Positions 7,951-19,544 of a DNA stretch of 64,000 bases are shown here, in pieces (the stretch's first letter is position 1; each line of letters begins with the position of its first letter). Source of the DNA: an uncultured Lachnospiraceae bacterium (GTDB lineage Bacteria > Bacillota > Clostridia > Lachnospirales > Lachnospiraceae); assembly GCA_902775485.1 (NCBI GenBank), contig CACYMJ010000002.1, positions 48,031-112,030 on the forward strand. Reading direction: 5' to 3'. Position numbers and translations under genes: made by a program. Below the pieces are notes generated by a model, which saw only the letters and a list, made by a program, of their open reading frames with translations, was not told the DNA's origin and ran no database searches.

Positions 7951-9351
7951 CTATGTAGCTATCTCTTGATTCTTGCCATTGTGGATATTCTTCGGGGCGT
8001 AATCTCTTCGTATATCCTTATATCTGTAGATCGACAAGACCATACCGATCATCGCATAATCAACGATACCGTAGGAAATACTGCTGGTAAAAATCGGAAG
8101 AGTCGAGCCTGTCATCGGAAGCAGACCAAATACGATCAGGATATTGCTGATGCTCTGAAGAGCCACAACGATACCGCAGGCACACCCTGTTATGTAGCCC
8201 AGGTTATTCTTTTGTCTTGCGGAAATGATTATCATATATGTGGCAAGAGCAAGCATGCATATTATTATGCCTGCAACCATGGCCAGGCCGCATATGGCAG
8301 CCATCGATCCCATCACAAGATCAGCCCAATAGCCCGGAATATCAGACATTATTCTGACCGCTTCATCACTTTTTCCTATGATAGCGCTATGTGTAAATAC
8401 CTTGCCCAGTTGTGCATTTATATAGTTAACCCCGGTATCATCTGTAATGTCGCTTCCTATTCCAAGATTGGATAGCCAGTTCGCAAATCTGGCACTCTGA
8501 TATGTGTTCAATCTGAGTATAAAGGCCGTACCAGCCATGATGAGCGTAGCAAAGACAGCCGAAAATCCGCCGTACACGATCTTTTTGTCAATATTATACC
8601 AGTTTTTATGAACGGCTATAAATATCAAAACTGTTTCTGCAAGCAGGATAAACAGCGCAGACGGTATCGAAAGATTCCCTGTGAAGAAGGGCGATATAAC
8701 CGGCAATATCATCCAAAATACAATCCGTGCCATAACCCATCTGCCTTTACCACGAAGTTCATATAAAATACCGGCAAATACAGGAATGTAGAGCATCATC
8801 AACGCACGAAGCGAAAATGACGCAAATCCTATACGGATCAATCCACTGCTGCCGTTGATCCTGATTCCAAAGGCAATCCCAACCAATGTGACAATCGCCA
8901 TGAAAATCCCTCCGATCAGCCTGCTGCGGCCCAGTAGGACAGTATAGTCAATACGATATACCAAAAACATCGCAATGATTCCGGCCATGATACCAATGAT
9001 ATGTCTTCTGGTAATATCAAGAAAAGCATTTCCCGTTATCGATCGCGAATCCATGTTTACTGCAATAAGATATTGGATCACTATACTCAATATACTGATA
9101 AACATTATGAAAATCAGATAACGCCATTCCATATGAGGTCTGTGTATACGATCCAGGTCCGCTCCTACGCTCACCGGATCCCCCATTTCCTCAACAGCTT
9201 TTAATAAAGCCTCTTCACGGTCCATTCCGGTTTGCCGATACGCATCGGCCTGCTCCTCGATATGCGCGGATATCTCATCAGAAACAAGTATCCTCGCGCT
9301 CTTATCACGGATCTGTCCCTTAAGCGCACCCATGTATTCTTCCAAACTCAT
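7951..9351 (-). CDS. divergent FtsW/RodA/SpoVE (SEDS)-like membrane protein with a PadR-associated N-terminal prefix domain
   Basis: The N-terminus MSLEEYMGALKGQIRDK...EEMGDPVSVGADL is typical of genes following padR. About 10 TM helices. C-terminal LPMTGSTLPIFTSSISYG resembles the SEDS P.TG..LPF.SYGGS motif. Confidence 0.65.
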   Translation of the reverse strand: MSLEEYMGALKGQIRDKSARILVSDEISAHIEEQADAYRQTGMDREEALLKAVEEMGDPVSVGADLDRIHRPHMEWRYLIFIMFISILSIVIQYLIAVNMDSRSITGNAFLDITRRHIIGIMAGIIAMFLVYRIDYTVLLGRSRLIGGIFMAIVTLVGIAFGIRINGSSGLIRIGFASFSLRALMMLYIPVFAGILYELRGKGRWVMARIVFWMILPVISPFFTGNLSIPSALFILLAETVLIFIAVHKNWYNIDKKIVYGGFSAVFATLIMAGTAFILRLNTYQSARFANWLSNLGIGSDITDDTGVNYINAQLGKVFTHSAIIGKSDEAVRIMSDIPGYWADLVMGSMAAICGLAMVAGIIICMLALATYMIIISARQKNNLGYITGCACGIVVALQSISNILIVFGLLPMTGSTLPIFTSSISYGIVDYAMIGMVLSIYRYKDIRRDYAPKNIHNGKNQEIAT

Positions 9352-9363
9352 GATATATCCCCC

Positions 9364-9705
9364 TTAATAAGAAATGGCCAGCACACCGGCAACTGCCCCT
9401 GTAAACGTTTCCCACTCACTAAGCTTTGCCTTCAGATATTTCCTTCCGGCATTTGTTATGGAGTAGTACTTGCGTGTTTTTCCAACCCCATCCTGCTCAT
9501 ATGATGTCAGGTAGTTTTTTGACTCCAGTGTATGAAGAAGCGGATATAATGTACCGGCTTTGAGTTCAAAAACATTCTGTGAGCGCGACCTGAGAGTCTC
9601 GATCATCTCATACCCGTACATATCCTTTTCATCCTTTTCCGAAAGAAGCTTTAACAGCATCGTTCCCATGCTTCCGGACAACAGCGTTTTATCTATATTA
9701 CTCAT
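9364..9705 (-). CDS. PadR family transcriptional regulator
   Basis: 113 aa. MYGYEMIETLRSRSQNVFELKAGTLYPLLHTLESKNYL is the canonical PadR winged helix. Confidence 0.85.
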   Translation of the reverse strand: MSNIDKTLLSGSMGTMLLKLLSEKDEKDMYGYEMIETLRSRSQNVFELKAGTLYPLLHTLESKNYLTSYEQDGVGKTRKYYSITNAGRKYLKAKLSEWETFTGAVAGVLAISY

Positions 9706-9726
9706 ACAGCCTCCTTTATATCGAAT

Positions 9727-9740
9727 ATCTATATATAGAT
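9727..9740. promoter_or_regulatory. perfect 14-bp palindrome atctatatatagat upstream of padR (possible operator)
   Basis: Read directly. It lies 22 nt upstream of the padR start codon. Confidence 0.3.
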
Positions 9741-9871
9741 AATCTATATACTATATCGATATTCTATACTAGTCAAGACTATTTCTCTCCCAATAATGAA
9801 TACTCATTTTACGCAAAACAAAAAGAACCATTATCACTGAAAAAATCAACGAAAAACAGTTCTTTTCTTCA

Positions 9872-9891
9872 TCGGGGTGACAGGATTCGAA
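9872..9891 (-). repeat. exact 20-nt copy of the tRNA-Pro 3' end (distal att site of the inner island)
   Basis: tcggggtgacaggattcgaa is identical to 18277-18296, in direct orientation. Confidence 0.85.
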
Positions 9892-9950
9892 TACTAATCC
9901 TAGCTTGAAAACGTAGGAAAGGAGCGGCTTTCAGCATATCGGTAACCCCA

Positions 9951-9972
9951 GGTATCAGTTTGGTATCAGTTT
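9951..9972. repeat. tandem direct repeat ggtatcagttt x2
   Basis: Read directly. It begins 59 nt inside the att copy. The 9-mer ggtatcagt recurs at 18238-18246 next to the intact tRNA. Confidence 0.8.
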
Positions 9973-10025
9973 TTTACCCGACGACTATTGTCTGTATCGT
10001 CGACTTAACCTCGCCATCAAACAAA

Positions 10026-11819
10026 TCACCTTTCTGCATTAGTTATGCTAATGCCTGAAATATGTGAAAAACAAGATAAACACCCCTGCTTTCCATTTTC
10101 TCTTTTTGCACTGGCCGAAACATAAACCTGTTTACGTGCTCTGGTGACAGCAACATAGAAAACAGAGAGTTCATCAAGCATTGCGTCTACATTCATAGCT
10201 TCGTTAGGTGGTAATGGGCATGCACATCTTACTGTATCTGAGAACTTATTAACACAATCCTTACAAGTGAAGGATCCTGGCAACCCCCATCTCTCAAAAT
10301 CCGCCAAAAAAACATACGGCCACTCCAATCCTTTGGCGCCATGAACAGTTGAAATAATAACATCAGCATCTACATATTCCATAGCTTGTTTTAACTGTCG
10401 ATTTTCAAAAGTATCTAAAAGCAGACTATACTTATCCTCTGCAGATAGTTCCGAATAATCATATGATACTTTTTTAACAAATGCGTCTAGCAGTTCACAC
10501 AATGAATCTACCATTCGATCATTAAACCCTTTATATTGCATTCTTATACTACGGGAGAATGAAACTAAGGATCTCTTTCCAATTGAATTTAGCTTGTCAA
10601 ATATCTTTATAAACTCCTTTTGACAGTATTTATGAAAATCTATATATTCTTTATCATCGTCTTTAAACATTCCATAGAAATATGGTATATTCTTGTCCTG
10701 AAGTAACTGTTCAAAAACATCCGAATTAGCACTTCGTGCCCTGAAAAGAATAACCACTTTTCCAGTTTCGCCATCATTCCTAAGCGAATTAATCTTCCCA
10801 AGTACTTTTTCTGCCTCGTTGTTCTGATCACTTGCCCAAAAGGTTTCCAACATTGCAGTTTCACTAGTATCAGGGTTAAAGCATTTATATGCATTAGCTC
10901 TTATATTCTTATCCAATTTCAGCATTTCTGGATTATCTTTGAACCTGTAGTTCTTATCTAATTCGATTTTTTTTGCAGATAGCATAGTTCTGGCCGAATC
11001 CATAATATTAGGAACAGCGCCAATAAAACCATATATTCGTTGAAGCGGGTCTCCCAATAGCAGAACATGCGTATTATCTCCAATCAAGTTTTGCAATAAC
11101 TCCCATGCGATACAGTTCGTGTCCTGAAATTCATCAACAACTATTAATGGATATAAGCTATGATAAAATGATTTTACAGCCTCATATTCATGTATTATTT
11201 CTAATGAAAACAGAATAATGGCGGTATAAGTAATTCTATCCTTAGGCAATATTTCCTCTATCACTATTTGGTTATATTTTTTGATTTCGGAGATTTCTGG
11301 CATAATAGCCTGCTTGATTTTTCTATCTATATATAATAAATACTCCTCTTTTTCATGAGAAATCCCTTTTAAATCTATGTATTTTCCTATTTCATCATCC
11401 CCAATTGCATAAAAAAGGTTTACATCCCTTCTTAGCAGCGGAGAAATAAGATGACCATATTTTTTTAGAAAACCTTTACAAAAACCATGATAGTTTGTTA
11501 TTGTAACTTTTTCACTCACATTCACGGGATTATTATCTTCACCTATTAACTCCGGAAGTTTTGCCGAAATGTCTCTTTTAATCTTTAATGCGGCATTCAC
11601 ACTAAAGGTTAGAGCTAATACCCTCTTGGGATTAGGTATTTTCCCTGTAGAGTATAGATATGCTATGCGGCTTACCATAGTCGCAGTTTTTCCGTAACCG
11701 GCTGGAGCTTCCACAATCATGCGCTTTTCATCCGAAATAACAACGCTTATCTGCTTTGAATCCCCGCCATGATTATTCTTGATTTTTTCTTCAATTGTTA
11801 ATGCCGTATTATTGTTCAA
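10026..11819 (-). CDS. gajB: Gabija GajB, UvrD-like helicase
   Basis: VEAPAGYGKTAT (Walker A), VVDEFQDTN (motif II), TVHGAKGLEWPYVFL, YVAVTRARKQVY. Start overlaps the gajA stop. Confidence 0.85.
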   Translation of the reverse strand: MNNNTALTIEEKIKNNHGGDSKQISVVISDEKRMIVEAPAGYGKTATMVSRIAYLYSTGKIPNPKRVLALTFSVNAALKIKRDISAKLPELIGEDNNPVNVSEKVTITNYHGFCKGFLKKYGHLISPLLRRDVNLFYAIGDDEIGKYIDLKGISHEKEEYLLYIDRKIKQAIMPEISEIKKYNQIVIEEILPKDRITYTAIILFSLEIIHEYEAVKSFYHSLYPLIVVDEFQDTNCIAWELLQNLIGDNTHVLLLGDPLQRIYGFIGAVPNIMDSARTMLSAKKIELDKNYRFKDNPEMLKLDKNIRANAYKCFNPDTSETAMLETFWASDQNNEAEKVLGKINSLRNDGETGKVVILFRARSANSDVFEQLLQDKNIPYFYGMFKDDDKEYIDFHKYCQKEFIKIFDKLNSIGKRSLVSFSRSIRMQYKGFNDRMVDSLCELLDAFVKKVSYDYSELSAEDKYSLLLDTFENRQLKQAMEYVDADVIISTVHGAKGLEWPYVFLADFERWGLPGSFTCKDCVNKFSDTVRCACPLPPNEAMNVDAMLDELSVFYVAVTRARKQVYVSASAKRENGKQGCLSCFSHISGISITNAER

Positions 11820-13537
11820 CTTGCAGCCTCTCTGGCTTTCAATATTGCTTTTTTATAACAGTCAGGTATTAGTTCCTTCTTTATTGATCTACCTATTATC
11901 CTGCCTACAAAAATACCTTTTTTCTTATATAGCCATGATGAAACTATATTGTAGAATTCCTGATCAGTCTCCGGAATTGAACCTATTGCCTTTGGAGTAT
12001 AACTGCCTAAATCGAGCCCTAATTTCTTTATATAAGGATCCCGAATAAAATCAGAATCTATAATTTCTGTTAGTGCACGAGGATGGATTTCTGTAAGAAT
12101 ATTTTTAATTAGATTGTATTCTCCGGCATCACACAGTTTTCGAATTATCTCGAATTCAAAGCATGGTTCACTGGTATAAAACTCATTTTCTGATGGTTCC
12201 TTTCCGCCCTTAACATCCCTATCATATATAGAAATGGTTTTAATTCCAAAATGATTGAACAGTGATTCTAATGGCTTTATAGAGCTTTCCCCCTGCGCAT
12301 TAACAACACATATTCCAAATTCGTCTAAATCCACTTCAAGAGTATTGGCAAATTCCTTGATGCAGCCATATTCAGTTTCACCCTCAATCAGAATAACAAC
12401 ATGTGCATAAAATGCTTCCTTTACATCTGGAAATCGCATTATTAGTTGCTTTTCATCGGCTGAAGATATAGAGAATGATGGATCTGCACCTGATATACAT
12501 GCAATATATCCTTGATTGTCAAAAAAACGTACTATATTTCGATAATCATCCATTATAGCGTCTGTCGAATGTGTCACTATAAGTAGCTGTCCTGATACTT
12601 CATCAATATCAAAACATGTTTTTAGCAACTCCAAAAATCCAACATCCTTGTTTTCCAATATTTTTTTGTAATACTTTATTAAAGTACGTTGCAAAAACGG
12701 ATGAAGATGCACCTCAGGTTCATCTAGTGCAATCACAATTGGCAATACCTTCTTTTTGTCATCATTTACAAACAGTCTATCTTCAAATGAAACTGTTTTT
12801 GTTGTATATAACTTCATTATATGTGCTAATACAGAAATAGATGCCATAGCAGTATACTGGATCCCCGCACCTGCATTCTCTATCCTTCGTTCTCCATCGG
12901 AAAGATAAAGAATACTTGTCAATAACTCCACATCATCATGAGAAACTGAAGCCTCTATTCCATACGATTCAAATCCCTTAATCTTTCTAAATCCATCATT
13001 TATATGTTTTTTTAAATCTTCTATACCTGTATTGTTAAATATGGATGGATTATTATCATTAATATAGCTAGTAATAACCCCCTTTATAAATGTTCCCAGT
13101 CCCTTATTTGAGTCAAACTGAAGTTCTTTACTAGGTTGTAAAGTAGACTCATACCTATATAAGTCTATTTTTCGAAGTTGTTTAAGAGCAATGTTATCAT
13201 CAGTATCAGTACAAATGAGGGTTGGATATGCTTCTGTAATAGTTTGAACATATTTAAGATGGATAATCGATTCATCACTAGCATCAAAGTTATCTCCAAA
13301 GAAACCGATCTCTCCTTTTTCCATTTTAATCTGAAGTTCGACTTCAATCGGTGAACACTTATCATTATAATCTTCCTCAGAAAAACCCCTTCCTGTACAT
13401 ACAGTTTCAAGGAGGTATAAAAAATTACTCTTTCCCAAATTATTTTCGCCAATAATATAGTTAATACTTGGATTAAGCCAGACTTCTATTCCATCTATAT
13501 TCCTATAATTACTTACTTTAATATGTTGAAGTACCAT
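11816..13537 (-). CDS. gajA: Gabija GajA, OLD-family ATP-dependent endonuclease (ABC ATPase + TOPRIM)
   Basis: IIGENNLGKSNFL (Walker A), IALDEPEVHLHP (Walker B), C-terminal TOPRIM VILIEGETEYGCI ... IYDRD. Sits directly upstream of a UvrD-like helicase. Confidence 0.85.
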   Translation of the reverse strand: MVLQHIKVSNYRNIDGIEVWLNPSINYIIGENNLGKSNFLYLLETVCTGRGFSEEDYNDKCSPIEVELQIKMEKGEIGFFGDNFDASDESIIHLKYVQTITEAYPTLICTDTDDNIALKQLRKIDLYRYESTLQPSKELQFDSNKGLGTFIKGVITSYINDNNPSIFNNTGIEDLKKHINDGFRKIKGFESYGIEASVSHDDVELLTSILYLSDGERRIENAGAGIQYTAMASISVLAHIMKLYTTKTVSFEDRLFVNDDKKKVLPIVIALDEPEVHLHPFLQRTLIKYYKKILENKDVGFLELLKTCFDIDEVSGQLLIVTHSTDAIMDDYRNIVRFFDNQGYIACISGADPSFSISSADEKQLIMRFPDVKEAFYAHVVILIEGETEYGCIKEFANTLEVDLDEFGICVVNAQGESSIKPLESLFNHFGIKTISIYDRDVKGGKEPSENEFYTSEPCFEFEIIRKLCDAGEYNLIKNILTEIHPRALTEIIDSDFIRDPYIKKLGLDLGSYTPKAIGSIPETDQEFYNIVSSWLYKKKGIFVGRIIGRSIKKELIPDCYKKAILKAREAAS

Positions 13538-13724
13538 TTTTGTCCCCTTTTTTACAGGTGTTTTTCTTTTATAGACCTCTATATTCTATTCTCTGATAAA
13601 GCCTATCCGAATCAAGCTCACTGATAGCACACGGTTTCCAAACTAGCCACCTGAACTATTTCTGTAGTTTCTACTATTCTTCTCAAATCGTGAAATAAAT
13701 CGAAAAAATCTTCTTCAAATACAG

Positions 13725-15065
13725 TTATTGGATAACAACCCAACTTCCGCTTTTGTTTGAGCCAATTCTCTCAATCTTACCTTTCTTCTTTAAACTAACC
13801 AACGTCCGCTCTATAGTCCGCTTTGTCACACCTATTTCTGTAGCCATCTCGTCGGCAGTTTTTTCCGGATTACCTATCAATATCCCTAATACAGCCTTCT
13901 CTGTTTTATTTATACCGACATTTATACCGACATTTATACCGACATTTATACCGACATTATTCACGCTTGATTTCAAAACCTCTTTGTTAAAGGGGATCCG
14001 ACACTTAACATAATTATCTGTAATCTCGAAGACCGTCTTATTATATTTTTTAATTATCGTTGGAACACCATGACCGGTATGTTCCGTTAGTCCCATGCTC
14101 AAAAAAATCCTCATCAATGTAACATTTCTCGGATGACTGATCCCTTCATAGAAGTCTTCCATTGTCATGCCATTTGGAAGTCCTCCATGAGATAGTATTT
14201 CCATGCGATCACTAAAGATAGATATTTGCGGCTCCGTCACAGTCCAATCGTTATGAACTAGCGCATTTAAAACAGCCTCATTAACAGCGTCATAATCAAA
14301 CAGGTACTTATCTTTTCTTGGTCTAACAGAGGTGTCAGAAATACAAATGTTTTCAGCTGATAACCTTGCCTTGATCTTTTCATAAACTGATAGAATACAT
14401 CCATATCCGTAGTCGTTTCTTTCAGAAATAGCTGCTTTATCAACACCACTAAATTTAACAAACGAGAACGGAATGCTGTTTTTATCTGCCAACAGTTCCG
14501 CTAAAAGATTATAATCTCCCTCCTTGTTCCGAAGATTGAAGTTGGCTTCAAAGGAAGCATCATCCACATGAAATCCTTTCTCAGCATAATATATCTTTAG
14601 TTCTCTAAAGGTAAGATCTGAACGGGAAGCGCGCTTTCTCAACATGTATTCTTCGTCTGAAAAGTTTTTTTCATAACGAATGCGAATCTGCTCCGGCGTC
14701 ATCTCCTTACATGTTGTTCCTATACGTATCACACATCCACTTGATGAAAACCCATATTTCTTCTGGCAGTATATATTCCTTGTACCCTTTGGAATACTAA
14801 GAGCAATAAGTGTCTTCCCCGAATCAAATAACACCTCTGTCCGGATTTCCTCCTGAGGATTAGGCTCAATCTGCGTGGTTATTACATCAGATATCTTTCT
14901 TAAAGTATCATCTATTTCTTTTACACCCACTACATCCCCATCATCATTAACACCTATAAGAATCTGACCACCATCTGCATTTAAAAAAGCAACTATCTCT
15001 TTGCAAATAGTGTCCGTGTATTTTACCTTTAATTCAGTCTTTTCTGATTCGATATATTGAGCCAT
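13725..15065 (-). CDS. AlbA_2 (Schlafen-like) / HATPase_c_4 / C-terminal wHTH protein
   Basis: ESEKTELKVKY...IVAFLNADGGQILIGVNDDGDVVGV (AlbA_2). HGGLPNGMT...SHPRNVTLMRIF..GLTEHTGHGV (HATPase_c_4). C-terminal wHTH. The Met at 15065 has an aggaagg RBS; the ORF track start is 15089. Confidence 0.8.
   Translation of the reverse strand: MAQYIESEKTELKVKYTDTICKEIVAFLNADGGQILIGVNDDGDVVGVKEIDDTLRKISDVITTQIEPNPQEEIRTEVLFDSGKTLIALSIPKGTRNIYCQKKYGFSSSGCVIRIGTTCKEMTPEQIRIRYEKNFSDEEYMLRKRASRSDLTFRELKIYYAEKGFHVDDASFEANFNLRNKEGDYNLLAELLADKNSIPFSFVKFSGVDKAAISERNDYGYGCILSVYEKIKARLSAENICISDTSVRPRKDKYLFDYDAVNEAVLNALVHNDWTVTEPQISIFSDRMEILSHGGLPNGMTMEDFYEGISHPRNVTLMRIFLSMGLTEHTGHGVPTIIKKYNKTVFEITDNYVKCRIPFNKEVLKSSVNNVGINVGINVGINVGINKTEKAVLGILIGNPEKTADEMATEIGVTKRTIERTLVSLKKKGKIERIGSNKSGSWVVIQ
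13909..13956. repeat. 4 perfect tandem copies of the 12-mer tttataccgaca inside the coding region (encodes VGIN x4)
   Basis: Read directly. In-frame 12-bp unit located between the ATPase-like domain and the wHTH. Confidence 0.95.
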
Positions 15066-15131
15066 TTTCCGTCCTTCCTCAATTTTCATACTATATATTT
15101 ATAGTATAACTGTTATGCGACATTTTTCAAG

Positions 15132-15154
15132 TTATACCGACATTTATACCGACA
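15132..15154. repeat. two further copies of the same 12-mer (ttataccgaca tttataccgaca) upstream of the same gene
   Basis: Read directly. Direct orientation relative to 13909-13956, about 45-90 nt upstream of the candidate start codons. Confidence 0.9.
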
Positions 15155-15267
15155 CAACTATGCTGGTATACAATAGCATTCAACAGAAATAGAGAGCCTA
15201 ATATCCTATAGTTCTTTTATTAGTCATCATTCTTTTTAGGATATTTGCGCTTTAAATAACTCAAACT

Positions 15268-15293
15268 AAAAAAAGGTGTGGGACACCCACACC
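15268..15293 (-). terminator. intrinsic terminator ending the K+ channel-HEPN operon
   Basis: On the minus strand: ggtgtgggtgtcccacacc hairpin followed by ttttttt. Confidence 0.6.
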
Positions 15294-15323
15294 TAATCGT
15301 TGTACCCGGTCATTTGACCAGCC

Positions 15324-15518
15324 CTATTTCTTTTTTGTATCAGTTTTTGTTTTAGTTGAAGGCTTTCTTGTGACTTTCTTCTTAGGAGCAGTTTTGGGAG
15401 CAACCGTGTTACATACCGCTTTTGCAAAACTTATTGCCTTGTCAAAATCACCCTCAACACGGAACTTCCCCTGAAGATATGCAACCGTTGCATCCAGTTT
15501 TCCGGCGATCAAATCCAT
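15324..15518 (-). pseudogene. truncated SCP2 sterol-carrier-like domain with a Lys-rich tail
   Basis: DLIAGKLDATVAYLQGKFRVEGDFDKAISFAK is the C-terminal half of an SCP2 fold. The in-frame upstream sequence (…YYDCDCRIRGGADVI) runs into a stop, and there is no N-terminal half. Confidence 0.4.
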
Positions 15519-15649
15519 TATAACATCTGCGCCGCCTCGGATCCGGCAATCACAGTCATAATATGCAGGGTTTGCAAATGCAGACAGTTATCTTACTCTT
15601 TTTACCGATTCACTTCCCAAAAAGTAATCAAACGTTAAAAAATGACGGT

Positions 15650-15973
15650 TTACCGATCTTGTAAGCCGCCATATGTATCTGATGATTGTTTTCGTTCATA
15701 TTGCATCTGATAATACATCTCGTTGGCTTCTTCTGTAGCCTTCTTATCCCGCCAGGCATCTATCTCGCTCTTGATCGCCAGCATTTCGTCTACAACGAGT
15801 TCGACTCTTTTGGGTTTTACATGATGCAGGTATGAGCTCATCCTGTTCATAGCCTTTGGGCTTCCAAGGTTCTTAGCAACCTCATTCCCCAGTTCTTCTG
15901 GGAACCCCAGTTGTTTTATTGAATTTACGAGTTCATCTCTAGCTCGTGTCCATTCACGTTGATTTGCTGTCAA
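15650..15973 (-). CDS. hypothetical helical protein
   Basis: 107-aa ORF, co-directional with and 60 nt downstream of the HEPN-motif gene. No motif recognised. Confidence 0.5.
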   Translation of the reverse strand: MTANQREWTRARDELVNSIKQLGFPEELGNEVAKNLGSPKAMNRMSSYLHHVKPKRVELVVDEMLAIKSEIDAWRDKKATEEANEMYYQMQYERKQSSDTYGGLQDR

Positions 15974-16032
15974 TATTGCTCCTTATAAGTGTCTTGACTT
16001 GCCCGGTCAAGCATCTCTGTTATTTCATTCCA

Positions 16033-16704
16033 TCAACAATCTGATATCTTTTGAATATATCTATCTATGTAACTCATAGCAGCTTCAACAAAATAAAACA
16101 TAAACCTATCATATTCCATGTTTGTTTCATATATGATCTGCCTTTTTTTACTCCCGCTCTCGCTGGAATAGGCAGAAACCCAATCCACGTTACTAGACGC
16201 GTGAGCGAAAACCTGAGATGACCAATAATCACCATCGTGTGCTACTCGGTTACGTATACCAAATATCATTTCATCAAAATCATTTAGGGGAGAATTATTG
16301 TCAAATATTTCTTTGTGAGCTACCTTATCCTCCTTGACAATAGTTCTAAAAGAATTTCGAATATACTCAGATCCCTCTTCCGAAAGGTTTTCCGCAAAAA
16401 AATTCTTTTTATCATCCTTGGTTTGCTCGGTCTGCCCACAAATTGATTCGATGCAGGTTCTAACACAGGCCACAACAAGGGGATCTCTCCCCGGCTTGGC
16501 ATTATGTATCATTCCTGCCAAGTCGACCCATCTGGTCAAGAGGTTCATCATCCTACGTGGTGTTTTATCAATGCTATCGTTTTGGAATACCCTTTCCAAA
16601 AAAGCCAAGATAATCTTCGAATCATAGTAATATCTGGAGAAAAAATCATAAACCTCTTTATAATACTCACCGTCAAAACCCGCATTTTGAAACACTTTAT
16701 TCAT
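16033..16704 (-). CDS. HEPN-motif protein (putative RNase)
   Basis: FGIRNRVAHDG contains the canonical R-N-x-x-x-H (Rx4H) HEPN motif near the C-terminal third. Start uncertain (several Mets between 16704 and 16752); it overlaps the channel gene's stop. Confidence 0.45.
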   Translation of the reverse strand: MNKVFQNAGFDGEYYKEVYDFFSRYYYDSKIILAFLERVFQNDSIDKTPRRMMNLLTRWVDLAGMIHNAKPGRDPLVVACVRTCIESICGQTEQTKDDKKNFFAENLSEEGSEYIRNSFRTIVKEDKVAHKEIFDNNSPLNDFDEMIFGIRNRVAHDGDYWSSQVFAHASSNVDWVSAYSSESGSKKRQIIYETNMEYDRFMFYFVEAAMSYIDRYIQKISDC

Positions 16705-17515
16705 GGTTATCTGCCTCGAGATCATCATCCGTCTCATCTTTTTTATGTTCATCTATAATGGCTTCCATATAACCAGCCGTAATAATACCAGCGGGTAACG
16801 CTACAATTGCAATACCAAACAACGACGAGATCATTGTTATGACTCTTCCTGTTGTAGTAACCGGATAAATATCTCCATATCCTACAGTAGTTAACGATAC
16901 TGTCGCCCAGTATATCGCATCAAAGAACGTTTCAAAGGAATCCGCTTCAACATTAAATATAACAAGAGCAGATACCAGAATATATCCAATTGCAAGCGTA
17001 CAAACCGCAAGTAACGCATCTTTGGAATTCCTTATCACTTTCACAATGATCATTATGCTCTTTGAGTATCTAAACGCCTTGAATACTCTAAACACCCGGA
17101 ACGTTCGGAATATCCTGAACAGTCTCAGTAGCTTAAATCCATCACTCAGAATACTTATTCCCGGCAAAATTGATAACAGATCTATAATTGCCATCGGCGT
17201 GAACGGATATTCAACAAATGATTTTGCGCCCTTTTTCAGTTTATAGTCCGCTGTAATCAGTCGGAATACATAATCTGCAATGAATAAGATTACAGTAATG
17301 ATATCGATATAGGTAAACACCGGATGCGGATTCTTGAATGCCAATGGAATAATGCTGACAATGATAGCAATCATCATTGTAATATCATACACTGTGCTAG
17401 CTTTATCTCCGTCCTTCGATACTTCAATTATTTCATAGAGTCTGTTTCGCATAATAATGCTTTGCCTCCTAATGCCAAGATTCTCCATACGGATATTTCT
17501 GTCATTTTTTTGCAA
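16697..17515 (-). CDS. voltage-gated-type (6-TM) potassium channel
   Basis: S4-like LLRLFRIFRTFRVFRVFKAFR; selectivity filter TTVGYGD. Confidence 0.85.
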   Translation of the reverse strand: MQKNDRNIRMENLGIRRQSIIMRNRLYEIIEVSKDGDKASTVYDITMMIAIIVSIIPLAFKNPHPVFTYIDIITVILFIADYVFRLITADYKLKKGAKSFVEYPFTPMAIIDLLSILPGISILSDGFKLLRLFRIFRTFRVFRVFKAFRYSKSIMIIVKVIRNSKDALLAVCTLAIGYILVSALVIFNVEADSFETFFDAIYWATVSLTTVGYGDIYPVTTTGRVITMISSLFGIAIVALPAGIITAGYMEAIIDEHKKDETDDDLEADNHE

Positions 17516-17538
17516 TAATTGTAACTTGATGTTATAAT
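17510..17538 (+). promoter_or_regulatory. sigma-A type promoter for the 17591 gene
   Basis: TTGCAA, 17-nt spacer, TATAAT. Confidence 0.5.
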
Positions 17539-17590
17539 TCTTACCGCGAGGGTTAAAAGGGGTTATTGTCCTATTCTCAGGAGGTTATTT

Positions 17591-17860
17591 ATGAGTAAAA
17601 CAAAAAATCGCCCCATAAAAGGTATCATATTCTCTGTAGTATTTACCATGACCGCGCTTTCTGCTGCTCCGGTTATGGCCGGCACACCTTCAACTCCCAA
17701 AACTGTTGCTGCGGCAAACACTATGGTTTGGGAAACAGCTACCGGAAAATGCTACCATAGTAAGAACAACTGTGGTAAAACAAATCCGAAAAAAGCACGG
17801 CAGATTACATTAGAGCAAGCCAAAACAAAAGGACTGAAAAAGTGTTCTAAGTGTTGGTAG
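17591..17860 (+). CDS. small secreted protein with a C-terminal Cys/His metal-binding-like motif
   Basis: Signal peptide (…SAAPVMAG). C-terminus GKCYHSKNNCGKTN…CSKCW. Confidence 0.55.
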   Translation: MSKTKNRPIKGIIFSVVFTMTALSAAPVMAGTPSTPKTVAAANTMVWETATGKCYHSKNNCGKTNPKKARQITLEQAKTKGLKKCSKCW

Positions 17861-17880
17861 TACACTATATATTATAATGG

Positions 17881-17919
17881 ATATAAGAGCTCTTACTTTC
17901 CCGGTAAGAGCTCTTATAT
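17881..17919. terminator. 16-bp perfect hairpin between convergent genes
   Basis: atataagagctcttac / gtaagagctcttatat with a 7-nt loop. No clear U-run on either side. Confidence 0.45.
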
Positions 17920-17921
17920 CG

Positions 17922-18122
17922 CTATTTAAATAGTTTGAATAAGGAAAAGCTGGTTTTCTTATACACCTTGTTATAGGCAGCTTTCTTAGGATTCTTAAAC
18001 CATCCCATCCCTTTCTTCCCGTATCCCGGAATAAATGACTTTTTTACAGTTCGCTTCGCCCTCCCGGTAGTCCTGGCTTTAAAATTCTTCTTAAGGCTAG
18101 GCTTCCTCATTCCAAATTTCAT
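17922..18122 (-). CDS. small, highly basic hypothetical protein
   Basis: 66 aa, about one third Lys/Arg. No motif recognised. Confidence 0.4.
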   Translation of the reverse strand: MKFGMRKPSLKKNFKARTTGRAKRTVKKSFIPGYGKKGMGWFKNPKKAAYNKVYKKTSFSLFKLFK

Positions 18123-18276
18123 TTATACTATCCTCCGGTATTTCATTATTCTAACATAAACCCTAACACTACAGACATATCCATACAAATGCCGTAACAA
18201 TAAGGAATGACCTTGCAAAGATCATTCCTTTCGATGAGGTATCAGTCTGCTGAACCTCGCAAAGTATTAGTAAGCC

Positions 18277-18351
18277 TCGGGGTGACAGGATTCGAACCTG
18301 CGGCCTCGTGGTCCCAAACCACGCGCTCTAGCCAAACTGAGCCACACCCCG
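18277..18351 (-). tRNA. tRNA-Pro (anticodon UGG)
   Basis: Hand-folded: CGGGGTG-TG-GCTC-AGTTTGGCTA-GAGC-G-CGTGG-TTTGGGA-CCACG-AGGCC-GCAGG-TTCGAAT-CCTGT-CACCCCG-A. 75 nt, no encoded CCA. Confidence 0.95.
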
Positions 18352-18431
18352 TAACGCAAATGCTATTTTATATGAACAGTATCTGCCATGTCAACCTGCT
18401 CGTGATCGTGCCGGCGGCACCTGCAGTTTCA

Positions 18432-18917
18432 TCACTGCCCGACATATCGTATCTCAAATACCGGCTTTTTCCCCGTCTCGGCATTTCCCACTATATAGGT
18501 CGGTACTCTTCCATGCTGTCTTGGGTAAGTAAGTGATCCCGGGTTTATAAGCGTAACCGGACCTTCCTCGTGGATCACGGGAACATGCGTATGTCCGAAG
18601 AAAACATAATCGGCCCGGTTTTCAGCCGCAAGATAAAACAGCGGATCATATCCGTGATAGAGCTGATAACGGTGACCGTGAGTAAGGACCGCTCTGTGAC
18701 CACTGAATTCTATGACCTTGATCCTCTCCATATCGGAGTCGTAATCATTGTTGCCTGCAACCACGTGCAGACTGCAGTCGATCCTGTCACGCAGGCGATC
18801 GTATTCCCCCTCGATATCACCGCAGTGTATCAGCATATCAAACGGTGACTCTTTTGCGATAACTTCGTACATTATATCATTGTAACCGTGTGTATCACTA
18901 ACTATCAGTATCTTCAT
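18432..18917 (-). CDS. yfcE: YfcE/MJ0936-family metallophosphoesterase
   Basis: MKILIVSDTHG…CGDIEG…GNNDY…GHTH motifs. Confidence 0.85.
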   Translation of the reverse strand: MKILIVSDTHGYNDIMYEVIAKESPFDMLIHCGDIEGEYDRLRDRIDCSLHVVAGNNDYDSDMERIKVIEFSGHRAVLTHGHRYQLYHGYDPLFYLAAENRADYVFFGHTHVPVIHEEGPVTLINPGSLTYPRQHGRVPTYIVGNAETGKKPVFEIRYVGQ

Positions 18918-18938
18918 CCGTTGTAATGTTTGATCCCC

Positions 18939-19544
18939 TTATTTCTTCCGGGTATAATCTTCACGCATGAGAATGTCTCTCATCATTCTCAGTGCCTTGC
19001 CCCTGTGGGATATCGCATTTTTTTCCTCTCGTGAGAGCTCCGCGGAAGTGCATCCTCTTTCCGGAAGGTAGAAGATAGGATCGTATCCGAATCCGTTCTC
19101 GCCCGCTATCTTATGCGCCACTATCCCCTCCATCGTTGCCCTTACCGTCTCGCTCGATCCATCCGGACGAACATAGCAGATCGCACAGACAAAACGCGCA
19201 GTACGTTTCTCATCCGGTACCGACTCCATGCGTCGCAGCAATTCAGCGTTTTTTACCGGATACGGGGTGTCCTCACCCATGTATCTTGAAGAATAGATTC
19301 CCGGCTCTTTCCCGAGATAATCTATCTCAAGGCCCGAATCATCCGCAAGAGTCGGCAGGCCGCTTTTTCTTGCTATAGCGCTTGCTTTCAGATACGCGTT
19401 TTCCTCGAACGTTTTTCCGGTCTCTTCCACATCAGTGTATACTCCGGCATCTTTCATGGATACGATCTCTATATCCATATCGGCCGTGATCTCACGTATC
19501 TCCCGGAGCTTATTCTCATTCCCGGTGGCAAATATTATCTTCAT
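18939..19544 (-). CDS. rdgB: XTP/dITP diphosphatase (RdgB/HAM1)
   Basis: MKIIFATGNENKLREI…DDSGLEIDYL…FGYDPIF. The ATG at 19544 has an aggag RBS. Confidence 0.9.
   Translation of the reverse strand: MKIIFATGNENKLREIREITADMDIEIVSMKDAGVYTDVEETGKTFEENAYLKASAIARKSGLPTLADDSGLEIDYLGKEPGIYSSRYMGEDTPYPVKNAELLRRMESVPDEKRTARFVCAICYVRPDGSSETVRATMEGIVAHKIAGENGFGYDPIFYLPERGCTSAELSREEKNAISHRGKALRMMRDILMREDYTRKK

Follow-up and report, generated by a model that had tools for sequence, protein, structure and literature searches.

In the window, the 64,000-nucleotide stretch of contig CACYMJ010000002.1 from an uncultured Lachnospiraceae bacterium that was analysed as a whole, an AT-rich island at a tRNA-Pro gene carries a string of four minus-strand genes, the first two of which encode a voltage-gated-type K+ channel with six transmembrane segments (6-TM) and an overlapping protein, here called ORF2, with an Arg-x4-His motif of the kind seen in HEPN ribonucleases (RNases). 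This locus is probably a mosaic of mobile cargo in a phage-derived island rather than a dedicated channel-HEPN system. Each of the two genes is mobile and has a usual home of its own, namely the prophage lysogeny module for the channel and the operon of a type I restriction-modification (R-M) system for ORF2. The headline idea of the initial annotation, a new abortive-infection or toxin system built from channel and HEPN protein, is not borne out as a conserved system.

In the account favoured here, the channel belongs to a clade that temperate phages of gut Clostridia carry in their lysogeny module, directly behind a CI/XRE repressor and ahead of an integrase or recombinase, and because of this position behind the repressor it would be made in lysogens. 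The slot behind the channel is a variable cargo site, holding an Abi_2 HEPN protein, a PemK/MazF-like protein, a TM2 protein, DUF4160/DUF2442 or nothing in other elements, and ORF2 fills it here. Members of the ORF2 family, about 220-290 aa long, have type I R-M operons as their commonest home, where they are translationally coupled to hsdM. Analogy with PrrC and Abi2 suggests that ORF2 would most likely be an RNase kept latent, acting in abortive infection or as back-up to another defence, and its coupling to the channel would be a local accident of insertion.

Gene starts, overlap and expression

The four co-directional open frames of the initial annotation are present and are closed by a terminator-like hairpin, with the starts of the first two corrected. 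At full length, all on the minus strand, the frames span 16697..17515 (272 aa from TTG), 16033..16752 (239 aa), 15650..15973 and 15324..15518. The channel likely starts at ATG 17452, which is preceded by AGGAGG; its orthologues share this start point (MR..LYEIIEVS), and the extension to TTG-17515 would be broken by a 1-nt deletion at 17505 in two metagenome contigs. On these three grounds it is taken as a protein of 251 aa (16697..17452, minus strand). Homologues of ORF2 begin at the equivalent of M17, so that ORF2 is placed at 16033..16704 on the same strand, with 223 aa. The overlap of the channel stop with the ORF2 start, as first annotated, stands and amounts to 8 nt, with GAGG ahead of the ORF2 ATG. 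The channel tail past ...ITAGYME is different in every orthologue.

In one RNA library contigs cover stretches of ORF2 (16173-16464), of the junction (16522-16909) and of the channel (16900-17311), and a further RNA library from this study covers 16117-16500; stretches outside this cover (e.g., 15686-16171 in X15) were not taken as silence. These contigs fit co-transcription of channel and ORF2, although they leave a single transcript unproven and DNA carry-over is possible. In this lineage the two genes probably share a transcript and are probably coupled in translation, and the 8-nt overlap probably arose at insertion. Both occur at about 99% identity in DNA contigs of two other studies (X2, 15905-17584; X5, 15881-17600), and hence the pair circulates in ruminant-gut populations. 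The X5 contig carries a 1-nt deletion at 16143 in ORF2, near residue 188, which would frameshift the last helix; it is seen in a single contig and may be an assembly error.

Conservation of the pair

The 24 loci collected for the ORF2 family comprise five from species genomes, 18 from metagenomes and one from the genus (L016). With the near-identical L001 and L017 set aside, 22 diverged loci of 15 lineages (at 80% identity) remain, and the channel is found in none of these 22, of which 14 have at least 1 kb of upstream sequence. A tblastn search of the channel against all 24 loci returned L001 only. Within the genus, the ORF2 profile is found in three of 50 genomes (G000, G011 and G013) and close channel orthologues in four of 25 (G000, G011, G007 and G004). 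The 99% complete G004 and G007 carry channel orthologues of 84-86% identity and no ORF2, while G013 has ORF2 beside hsdM and no close channel. Fused forms are not seen among the 107 representatives of the ORF2 family, all of 63-299 aa. The pair is seen in near-identical copies alone (L001/G011 and the X2 and X5 contigs), and channel and ORF2, proposed to be a conserved module, are not conserved neighbours elsewhere.

A K+ channel of phage lysogeny modules

The 6-TM channel with an Arg-repeat S4 and a TTVGYGD filter was correctly recognized from the outset. It matches Pfam Ion_trans (PF00520) at 5.7e-29 over residues 41-250 of the 272-aa frame and Ion_trans_2 at 3.7e-16, and its translation contains the S4 Arg repeat LLRLFRIFRTFRVFRVFKAFR along with the filter TTVGYGD. 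The 6-TM Ion_trans domain, the charged S4 and the TVGYG filter are all present, at positions conserved in five aligned orthologues. By its fold, S4 and filter the protein is a Kv-type K+ channel with a predicted K+-selective, voltage-dependent conductance, sharing the Ion_trans fold, Arg-repeat S4 and TVGYGD filter with prokaryotic Kv channels of the KvAP/MVP type; the NCBIfam MVP-type model matches weakly (2.9e-12, far under cut-off). The family phrog_7872, whose function is not known, covers it over its full length at 2.9e-42. A paralogue of 33-38% identity is present in most genomes of the genus, which makes the island channel an extra copy.

Close relatives of this extra copy are carried by phages. 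Dulem virus 33, a GenBank phage, encodes a full-length channel of 68.5% identity (tblastn), whose start overlaps the stop of an XRE-type repressor and which is followed by small genes and then an integrase. In IMG/VR the channel occurs on 21 contigs, at 48-64% identity, and at a 90% identity level these group into about ten lineages. When 53 neighbours of the channel in the viral loci were annotated with Pfam, the same-strand ORF directly upstream proved to be an HTH or HTH plus S24 repressor in each of the 12 loci where such an ORF was scanned. Downstream lies a tyrosine integrase (L068 and L071), a serine recombinase (L066) or an IS30-type gene (L069 and L083), and elsewhere one or two cargo genes follow before the recombinase; an integrase, serine recombinase or IS30-type gene is met within one to three genes. 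Endolysins adjoin the channel in three lineages (L081, L082 and L085).

The gene behind the channel is exchanged even within a single lineage. Among the contigs of the L072-L079 lineage (90% identity), this slot holds Abi_2 in five, a Zn-ribbon plus a PemK-like protein in two (L074 and L078) and a PemK-like protein in one (L075). The Abi_2 gene of L072 is identified at 1.8e-28, has 98-99% identical copies in four further contigs, and lies 233 nt away from the channel, not coupled to it. The proteins that replace it are PemK/MazF-like domain proteins of 270-281 aa and double zinc-ribbon proteins of 255-282 aa (L074 6717-8428; L075 6715-7524; L078 1364-2128). By this behaviour the slot is a hotspot of toxin and defence cargo, which makes it a helpful guide to further systems.

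Across the class the channel clade is patchy, being found in 17 of 399 genomes and 13 of 217 genera. The closer cellular copies lie in prophage or variable regions, that of G464 in the order S24 repressor, zinc-motif protein, channel, DUF4160/DUF2442 and serine recombinase and that of G004 near a GmrSD-type gene, and copies of at most 50% identity lie among housekeeping genes (gyrA, flagellar genes and ECF transporters). The window copy is therefore read as an accessory, phage-borne copy and not as the ubiquitous housekeeping orthologue that would have spoken against the module first proposed. As a side observation, the channel stands directly downstream of DUF3990/DUF3791-type genes, a small gene pair common in Clostridia, in two genomes (L107 3477-4179, 8.3e-49; L108 5260-5943, 3.8e-15).

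Virus-encoded K+ channels are familiar from Kcv of chloroviruses, but Kcv is a minimal pore that has no voltage sensor and belongs to eukaryotic viruses, whereas a full 6-TM channel is found here in the lysogeny module of temperate bacteriophages. In phage lambda, the exclusion genes rexA-rexB sit behind the prophage repressor and RexB is an ion channel. The likeness to the present case lies in an ion-channel gene that would be transcribed with a prophage repressor; phage homologues of the channel directly follow, and sometimes overlap, the CI/XRE gene. The differences are that no sequence relation to RexA/RexB was tested for or seen, that the channel is a K+-selective-type 6-TM protein with a voltage sensor, that it has no conserved RexA-like partner, and that the window copy has lost the repressor. 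In the literature search no paper turned up that describes a channel of this type in lysogeny modules of phages or in defence. Its regular presence there, as a complete voltage-sensor K+ channel of temperate phages of gut Clostridia, poses the question of what the lysogen gains from it.

The ORF2 family and the HEPN question

ORF2 does contain FGIRNRVAHDG, as the initial annotation stated, with the R-x4-H motif at R151-N152-x3-H156. A word-indexed search returned six relatives and exhaustive HMMER searching the 107 representative clusters. In an alignment of 83 members, R151 is the sole invariant residue, and 90% or more of the sequences retain E86, H156, G158, W161 and F201. The motif R-[NDGCS]-x3-H-[DE]-G-[DN]-[YF]-W occurs in 22 of 23 locus-encoded homologues and is broken in L034. 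The HEPN feature of R-x4-6-H with a polar residue after the Arg is present, with N, D, S, G or C following the Arg across the 23 loci.

Assignment of the protein to HEPN, as first proposed, stands in part: the conserved R-x4-H and a profile match to Abi_2 speak for it, but fold searches do not single out HEPN. For ORF2 itself, PADLOC, NCBIfam and PHROGs gave no match, and neither did Pfam, even at E<=10. Taken singly against Pfam, family members give sub-threshold matches to Abi_2 (6/83), HEPN_Apea (3/83) and Ribonuc_2-5A (1/83), and the weak matches of the motif region are solely to HEPN-clan families. Those to Abi_2 always link this region with the last 50 positions of the model; the best member scores 19.3 bits against the Abi_2 (PF07751) gathering threshold of 25.6 bits, which is not reached. 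When the family was compared by hhalign with 17 Abi_2 proteins, drawn from genomes of the same order, a match of 55 columns was obtained at a probability of 58% and P 9.8e-5, with the RNxxxH motifs in register, and all 22 reversed or block-shuffled controls were weaker (best P 0.013). This relation lends moderate support to a HEPN assignment, short of proof. The family profile returned a chance-level match alone against PDB sequences (7dde_A, E 0.12). The AlphaFold2 (AF2) model of ORF2 has a pLDDT of 95.9, and fold searches do not separate HEPN, a four-helix up-down bundle whose last core helix opens with the motif, from generic helical bundles; among the ESM Atlas matches only unnamed clusters were found, the nearest named entries (0.79-0.85) being leads only. 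By tblastn, no match to ORF2 was found in PLSDB plasmids, in GenBank phages or among the viral contigs of IMG/VR.

Taken together, ORF2 is plausibly a distant, putative Abi2-like HEPN ribonuclease, the HEPN assignment being insecure. Its family is unnamed in the sense that it has no Pfam, PADLOC, NCBIfam or PHROG model, and it may stand under another label in the family lists of the HEPN survey (PMC3710099). The likeness to Abi2/AbiD/AbiF (PF07751) extends to the R-N-x3-H motif and its preceding helix, which align in register, and to a stand-alone architecture with R-M operons (PMC3710099) and prophages as homes. The ORF2 family differs in being shorter (about 220-290 aa against about 270-355 aa) and in carrying the H-[DE]-G-[DN]-[YF]-W continuation and inserted beta-hairpins, its RNase activity, of the metal-independent kind that marks HEPN proteins, being putative.

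Homes of the ORF2 family

The surroundings of the family were described by Pfam annotation of 63 ORFs neighbouring its loci. Type I R-M operons hold seven of the 15 diverged lineages (L004, L016, L019, L020, the L021-24/32 group, L027 and L030). In six of these the homologue occupies the gap between hsdM and hsdS (L004, L019, L020, L022/L024/L032, L027 and L030), and in L016 it lies just upstream of hsdM. Its start overlaps the hsdM stop by 4 nt in six of the seven loci having a visible upstream hsdM. These operons hold further inserted defence genes, including DUF4435/AAA, TIR plus reverse transcriptase and a Ser/Thr kinase. The inserts between hsdS and hsdR (L020 6837-8459; L022 7356-9970; L024 6611-8197; L027 6208-7815; L032 1990-3255) carry DUF4435/AAA_21, TIR plus reverse transcriptase, Ser/Thr kinases and an AAA_15/AAA_21 ATPase.

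Other lineages stand beside DUF5677 (L002 and L005), PIN (L005 and L018), GmrSD-HNH (L031), a D5-type primase (L003/L026) or transposases (L025/L034). DUF5677 lies directly downstream of the homologue in two unrelated lineages (L002 8856-10310, 5.3e-16; L005 8853-9809, 3.4e-17) and may be a second recurrent partner of the family.

These R-M homes match what the HEPN survey says of Abi2/AbiD/AbiF, described as 'embedded in R-M operons', and of PrrC, which resides inside hsdMSR (PMC3710099). PrrC, the latent anticodon nuclease of EcoprrI in a type Ic hsdMSR, is likewise a HEPN-type gene within a type I R-M operon, an arrangement suggesting a second line of defence (PMC3710099). The two differ in architecture, an N-terminal ABC ATPase being part of PrrC while ORF2-family proteins consist of one small domain, and in partner genes, since the assembled genome offers the window copy no R-M partner. 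Indeed, unlike seven of the 15 lineages, the window ORF2 is not within an hsdM/hsdS/hsdR operon, and neither HsdM_N nor HSDR_N finds a match in the 84%-complete assembled genome, so that ORF2 is orphaned here. The family is a candidate PrrC-like back-up to restriction.

Alternative explanations

Several observations sit uneasily with a mosaic of mobile cargo that includes a HEPN nuclease. The island has neither repressor nor integrase, which leaves PHROG matches and homologues in other places as the grounds for calling it phage-derived; the viral contigs are predicted ones, several of them from one lineage. In favour of a real coupling, the 8-nt overlap of channel and ORF2 resembles the 4-nt hsdM overlaps of the family, and a different HEPN gene, Abi_2, follows a second channel lineage. 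As to the HEPN assignment, the hhalign probability to Abi_2 is only 58%, the match against a single phage Abi_2 sequence has a P of 0.023, and the window protein by itself matches no Pfam family even at E<=10. In the AF2 model the C-terminal half of helix 139-157 contains the motif, after which come a beta-hairpin and a further helix, and Foldseek returned nothing at E<=0.001, whether the two ORF2 models were searched against PDB or the better one against BFVD.

A two-gene abortive-infection or toxin module, in which the channel would sense or execute a change in membrane potential and the HEPN RNase would be activated by it or work with it, draws on the 8-nt stop/start overlap with GAGG ahead of the ORF2 ATG, on the junction bridged by an RNA-library contig, and on the recurrence of the pair at about 99% identity in contigs of two further studies and in G011. 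The independent L072 phage group (five contigs) adds a bona fide Abi_2 (1.8e-28) after the channel, ending in the recurrent zinc motif described below, and the channel sits behind a prophage repressor as lambda rexA-rexB do. Such a module is nonetheless improbable, given that none of the 22 diverged ORF2 loci (15 lineages) has the channel, that channel orthologues of 84-86% identity occur in genomes devoid of ORF2, that an integrase or recombinase directly follows the channel in three viral lineages (L066, L068 and L071), and that there are no fusions among the 107 representatives. The downstream gene is swapped within one phage lineage in the fashion of a cargo hotspot, the L072 Abi_2 stands 233 nt off and uncoupled, and X5 carries the 1-nt deletion in ORF2. 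For the Abi_2 gene behind the second channel lineage a hotspot is the simplest explanation, and the functional channel-HEPN link that this gene keeps alive is a faint prospect. A broader version of the idea, also doubtful, would make the channel a prophage-encoded, Rex-like membrane-potential device, produced with the repressor and sensing or answering the depolarisation of superinfection, with nuclease partners beside it (Abi_2 HEPN, PemK/MazF-like, Endonuclease_NS_2 and MBL, some of them tethered via an Ada-like zinc motif) and ORF2 as one more RNase partner; if true, a voltage-gated ion channel would be the constant part of a modular anti-phage system.

The two genes have also to be considered apart. 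ORF2 could be no nuclease at all but a subunit with an accessory or regulatory role in type I R-M systems (e.g., in HsdM/HsdS assembly or restriction alleviation), using its Arg/His motif for binding, with the window copy an orphan remnant. The typical position between hsdM and hsdS and the 4-nt hsdM overlaps in six of seven loci would suit such a subunit, as would the fold searches that fail to single out HEPN, the zero curated family matches, the lack of HsdM_N and HSDR_N matches in the 84%-complete genome and the frameshifted variant in one contig. This explanation is unlikely all the same: eight of the 15 lineages lie outside R-M operons, beside defence, toxin-antitoxin or mobile genes (DUF5677, PIN, GmrSD-HNH, primase and transposase), and the invariant Arg with its partner His forms an R-x4-H signature in register with Abi_2. 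Moreover, unrelated defence genes (TIR, reverse transcriptase, kinase and OLD-like ATPase) are inserted in the same operons, which makes the position of the ORF2 homologue a cargo site rather than that of a subunit. It is more improbable still that the arrangement is incidental, the channel being an ordinary cellular K+ channel for ion homeostasis and neither gene tied to phages or defence. Same-clade channels of at most 50% identity do occur in gyrA, flagellar and ECF transporter contexts, and most genomes of the genus have the 33-38% paralogue, but the close clade is patchy (four of 25 genomes in the genus, 17 of 399 in the class), it is carried in the lysogeny module by one GenBank phage and 21 viral contigs, and the window copy shares its low-GC island with Gabija and genes that match PHROGs. 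The probable explanation remains a mosaic of mobile cargo in a phage-derived island.

The island and its other genes

The island described at first as AT-rich, tRNA-linked and Gabija-bearing proved to be so, and to hold phage genes as well. Its edge is marked by tRNA-Pro (TGG) at 18277..18351 on the minus strand (ARAGORN; Rfam tRNA 67.4 bits), and an Rfam scan of 9000-19000 found nothing besides this tRNA. The GC content is 0.34-0.39 across 10-18 kb and 0.45-0.50 in the flanks. Gabija occupies 10026..13537 on the minus strand as an adjacent pair of GajA (11816-13537; ATPase plus OLD-type TOPRIM) and GajB (10026-11819; UvrD-like helicase), with PADLOC (6.2e-185 and 6.6e-205, respectively) and Pfam domains concordant. 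Between Gabija and the four-gene string lies a Schlafen AlbA_2/HATPase_c_4/winged-HTH protein (13725..15089, minus strand; Pfam SLFN_AlbA_2 7.7e-21, HATPase_c_4 1e-16), which phrog_12156 matches over its full length at 2.6e-62. Bacterial Schlafens in anti-phage defence are reportedly the subject of a 2025 preprint (PMC12330615).

The PHROG-matching genes of the island are the channel, this Schlafen-like gene and two short ORFs on the tRNA side. The first of these (17591..17860, plus strand) encodes a secreted zinc-motif protein of 89 aa, divergent from the channel and matching phrog_14556 at 1.3e-10. The other (17922..18122, minus strand) encodes a very basic 66-aa protein of phage families that adjoins tRNA-Pro. 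It matches phrog_10934 at 2.5e-31 and three other PHROGs, aligning with the first 66 positions of all four families at about 1e-26 to 1e-31, the proteins of these families being longer (103-304 positions). In L001, a 178-aa ORF next to the tRNA was considered as an integrase fragment and dropped, as it has no Pfam or PHROG match.

At the other end, the four-gene string is closed by an intrinsic-terminator-like hairpin and T run (15274..15294, minus strand), with a stem of 9 bp, six of them G-C pairs. Terminator-like sites in the region number seven against 2.1 +/- 1.5 in shuffles, and promoter-like sites 10 against 11.2, which is no excess, and no promoter is claimed. The 42 bases at 15268-15309, comprising the hairpin and short flanks, form an element that recurs in multiple copies in gut metagenomes, where numerous contigs from all four runs match these bases only, with unrelated sequence on either side. 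The last gene (15324..15518, minus strand) encodes 64 aa with a Lys-rich tail. What was first called an SCP2 fragment stands as a weak C-terminal match to Pfam SCP2 (E 0.0041), but its 17.9 bits fall under the cut-off of 21.3.

The 89-aa secreted protein ends in H-x4-C...C-x2-C, a motif that Pfam names Ada_Zn_binding in the G496 neighbour (2.8e-5). A protein with this motif adjoins, or nearly adjoins, the channel in seven lineages, following an unrelated N-terminal part in each: a signal peptide only in the window/G011, an MBL hydrolase fusion in G004, Endonuclease_NS_2 in G496, DUF4214 in G348, Cu_amine_oxidN1 in G464, a transmembrane protein in Dulem virus 33, where one 32-aa ORF intervenes between it and the channel, and an Abi_2 fusion in the L072 group. 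The loci are 17591-17860 (+) in the window, L121 6702-7934, L104 6859-7788, L105 5247-5975, L109 4132-4845, L072 6927-7985 and L065 7876-8493. The motif was found nowhere else in the 39 loci scanned and in two of the 2222 ORFs of the window genome. The zinc domain occurs in 59 of 151 genomes of the order, and a channel lies within 1.5 kb at only two of the 30 best loci, on which count the zinc-motif protein was rejected as an obligate partner of the channel.

The third gene of the string, ORF3 (15650..15973, minus strand), encodes a helical protein of 107 aa for which, as for the SCP2-like ORF, PADLOC and NCBIfam gave nothing. It belongs to a very large, well-conserved and unnamed family of proteins of about 100 aa, with at least 1390 clusters at E<=0.001, many of them 65-90% identical, and no Pfam model. 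ORF3 is found with ORF2 only in the near-identical copies L001 and L017. Among 41 relatives it is present in nine, in varied contexts, and as a partner of ORF2 it was rejected, its family being very large and standing in unrelated contexts. Within the genus the ORF3 family is sporadic (eight of 24 genomes) and is multi-copy in G024.

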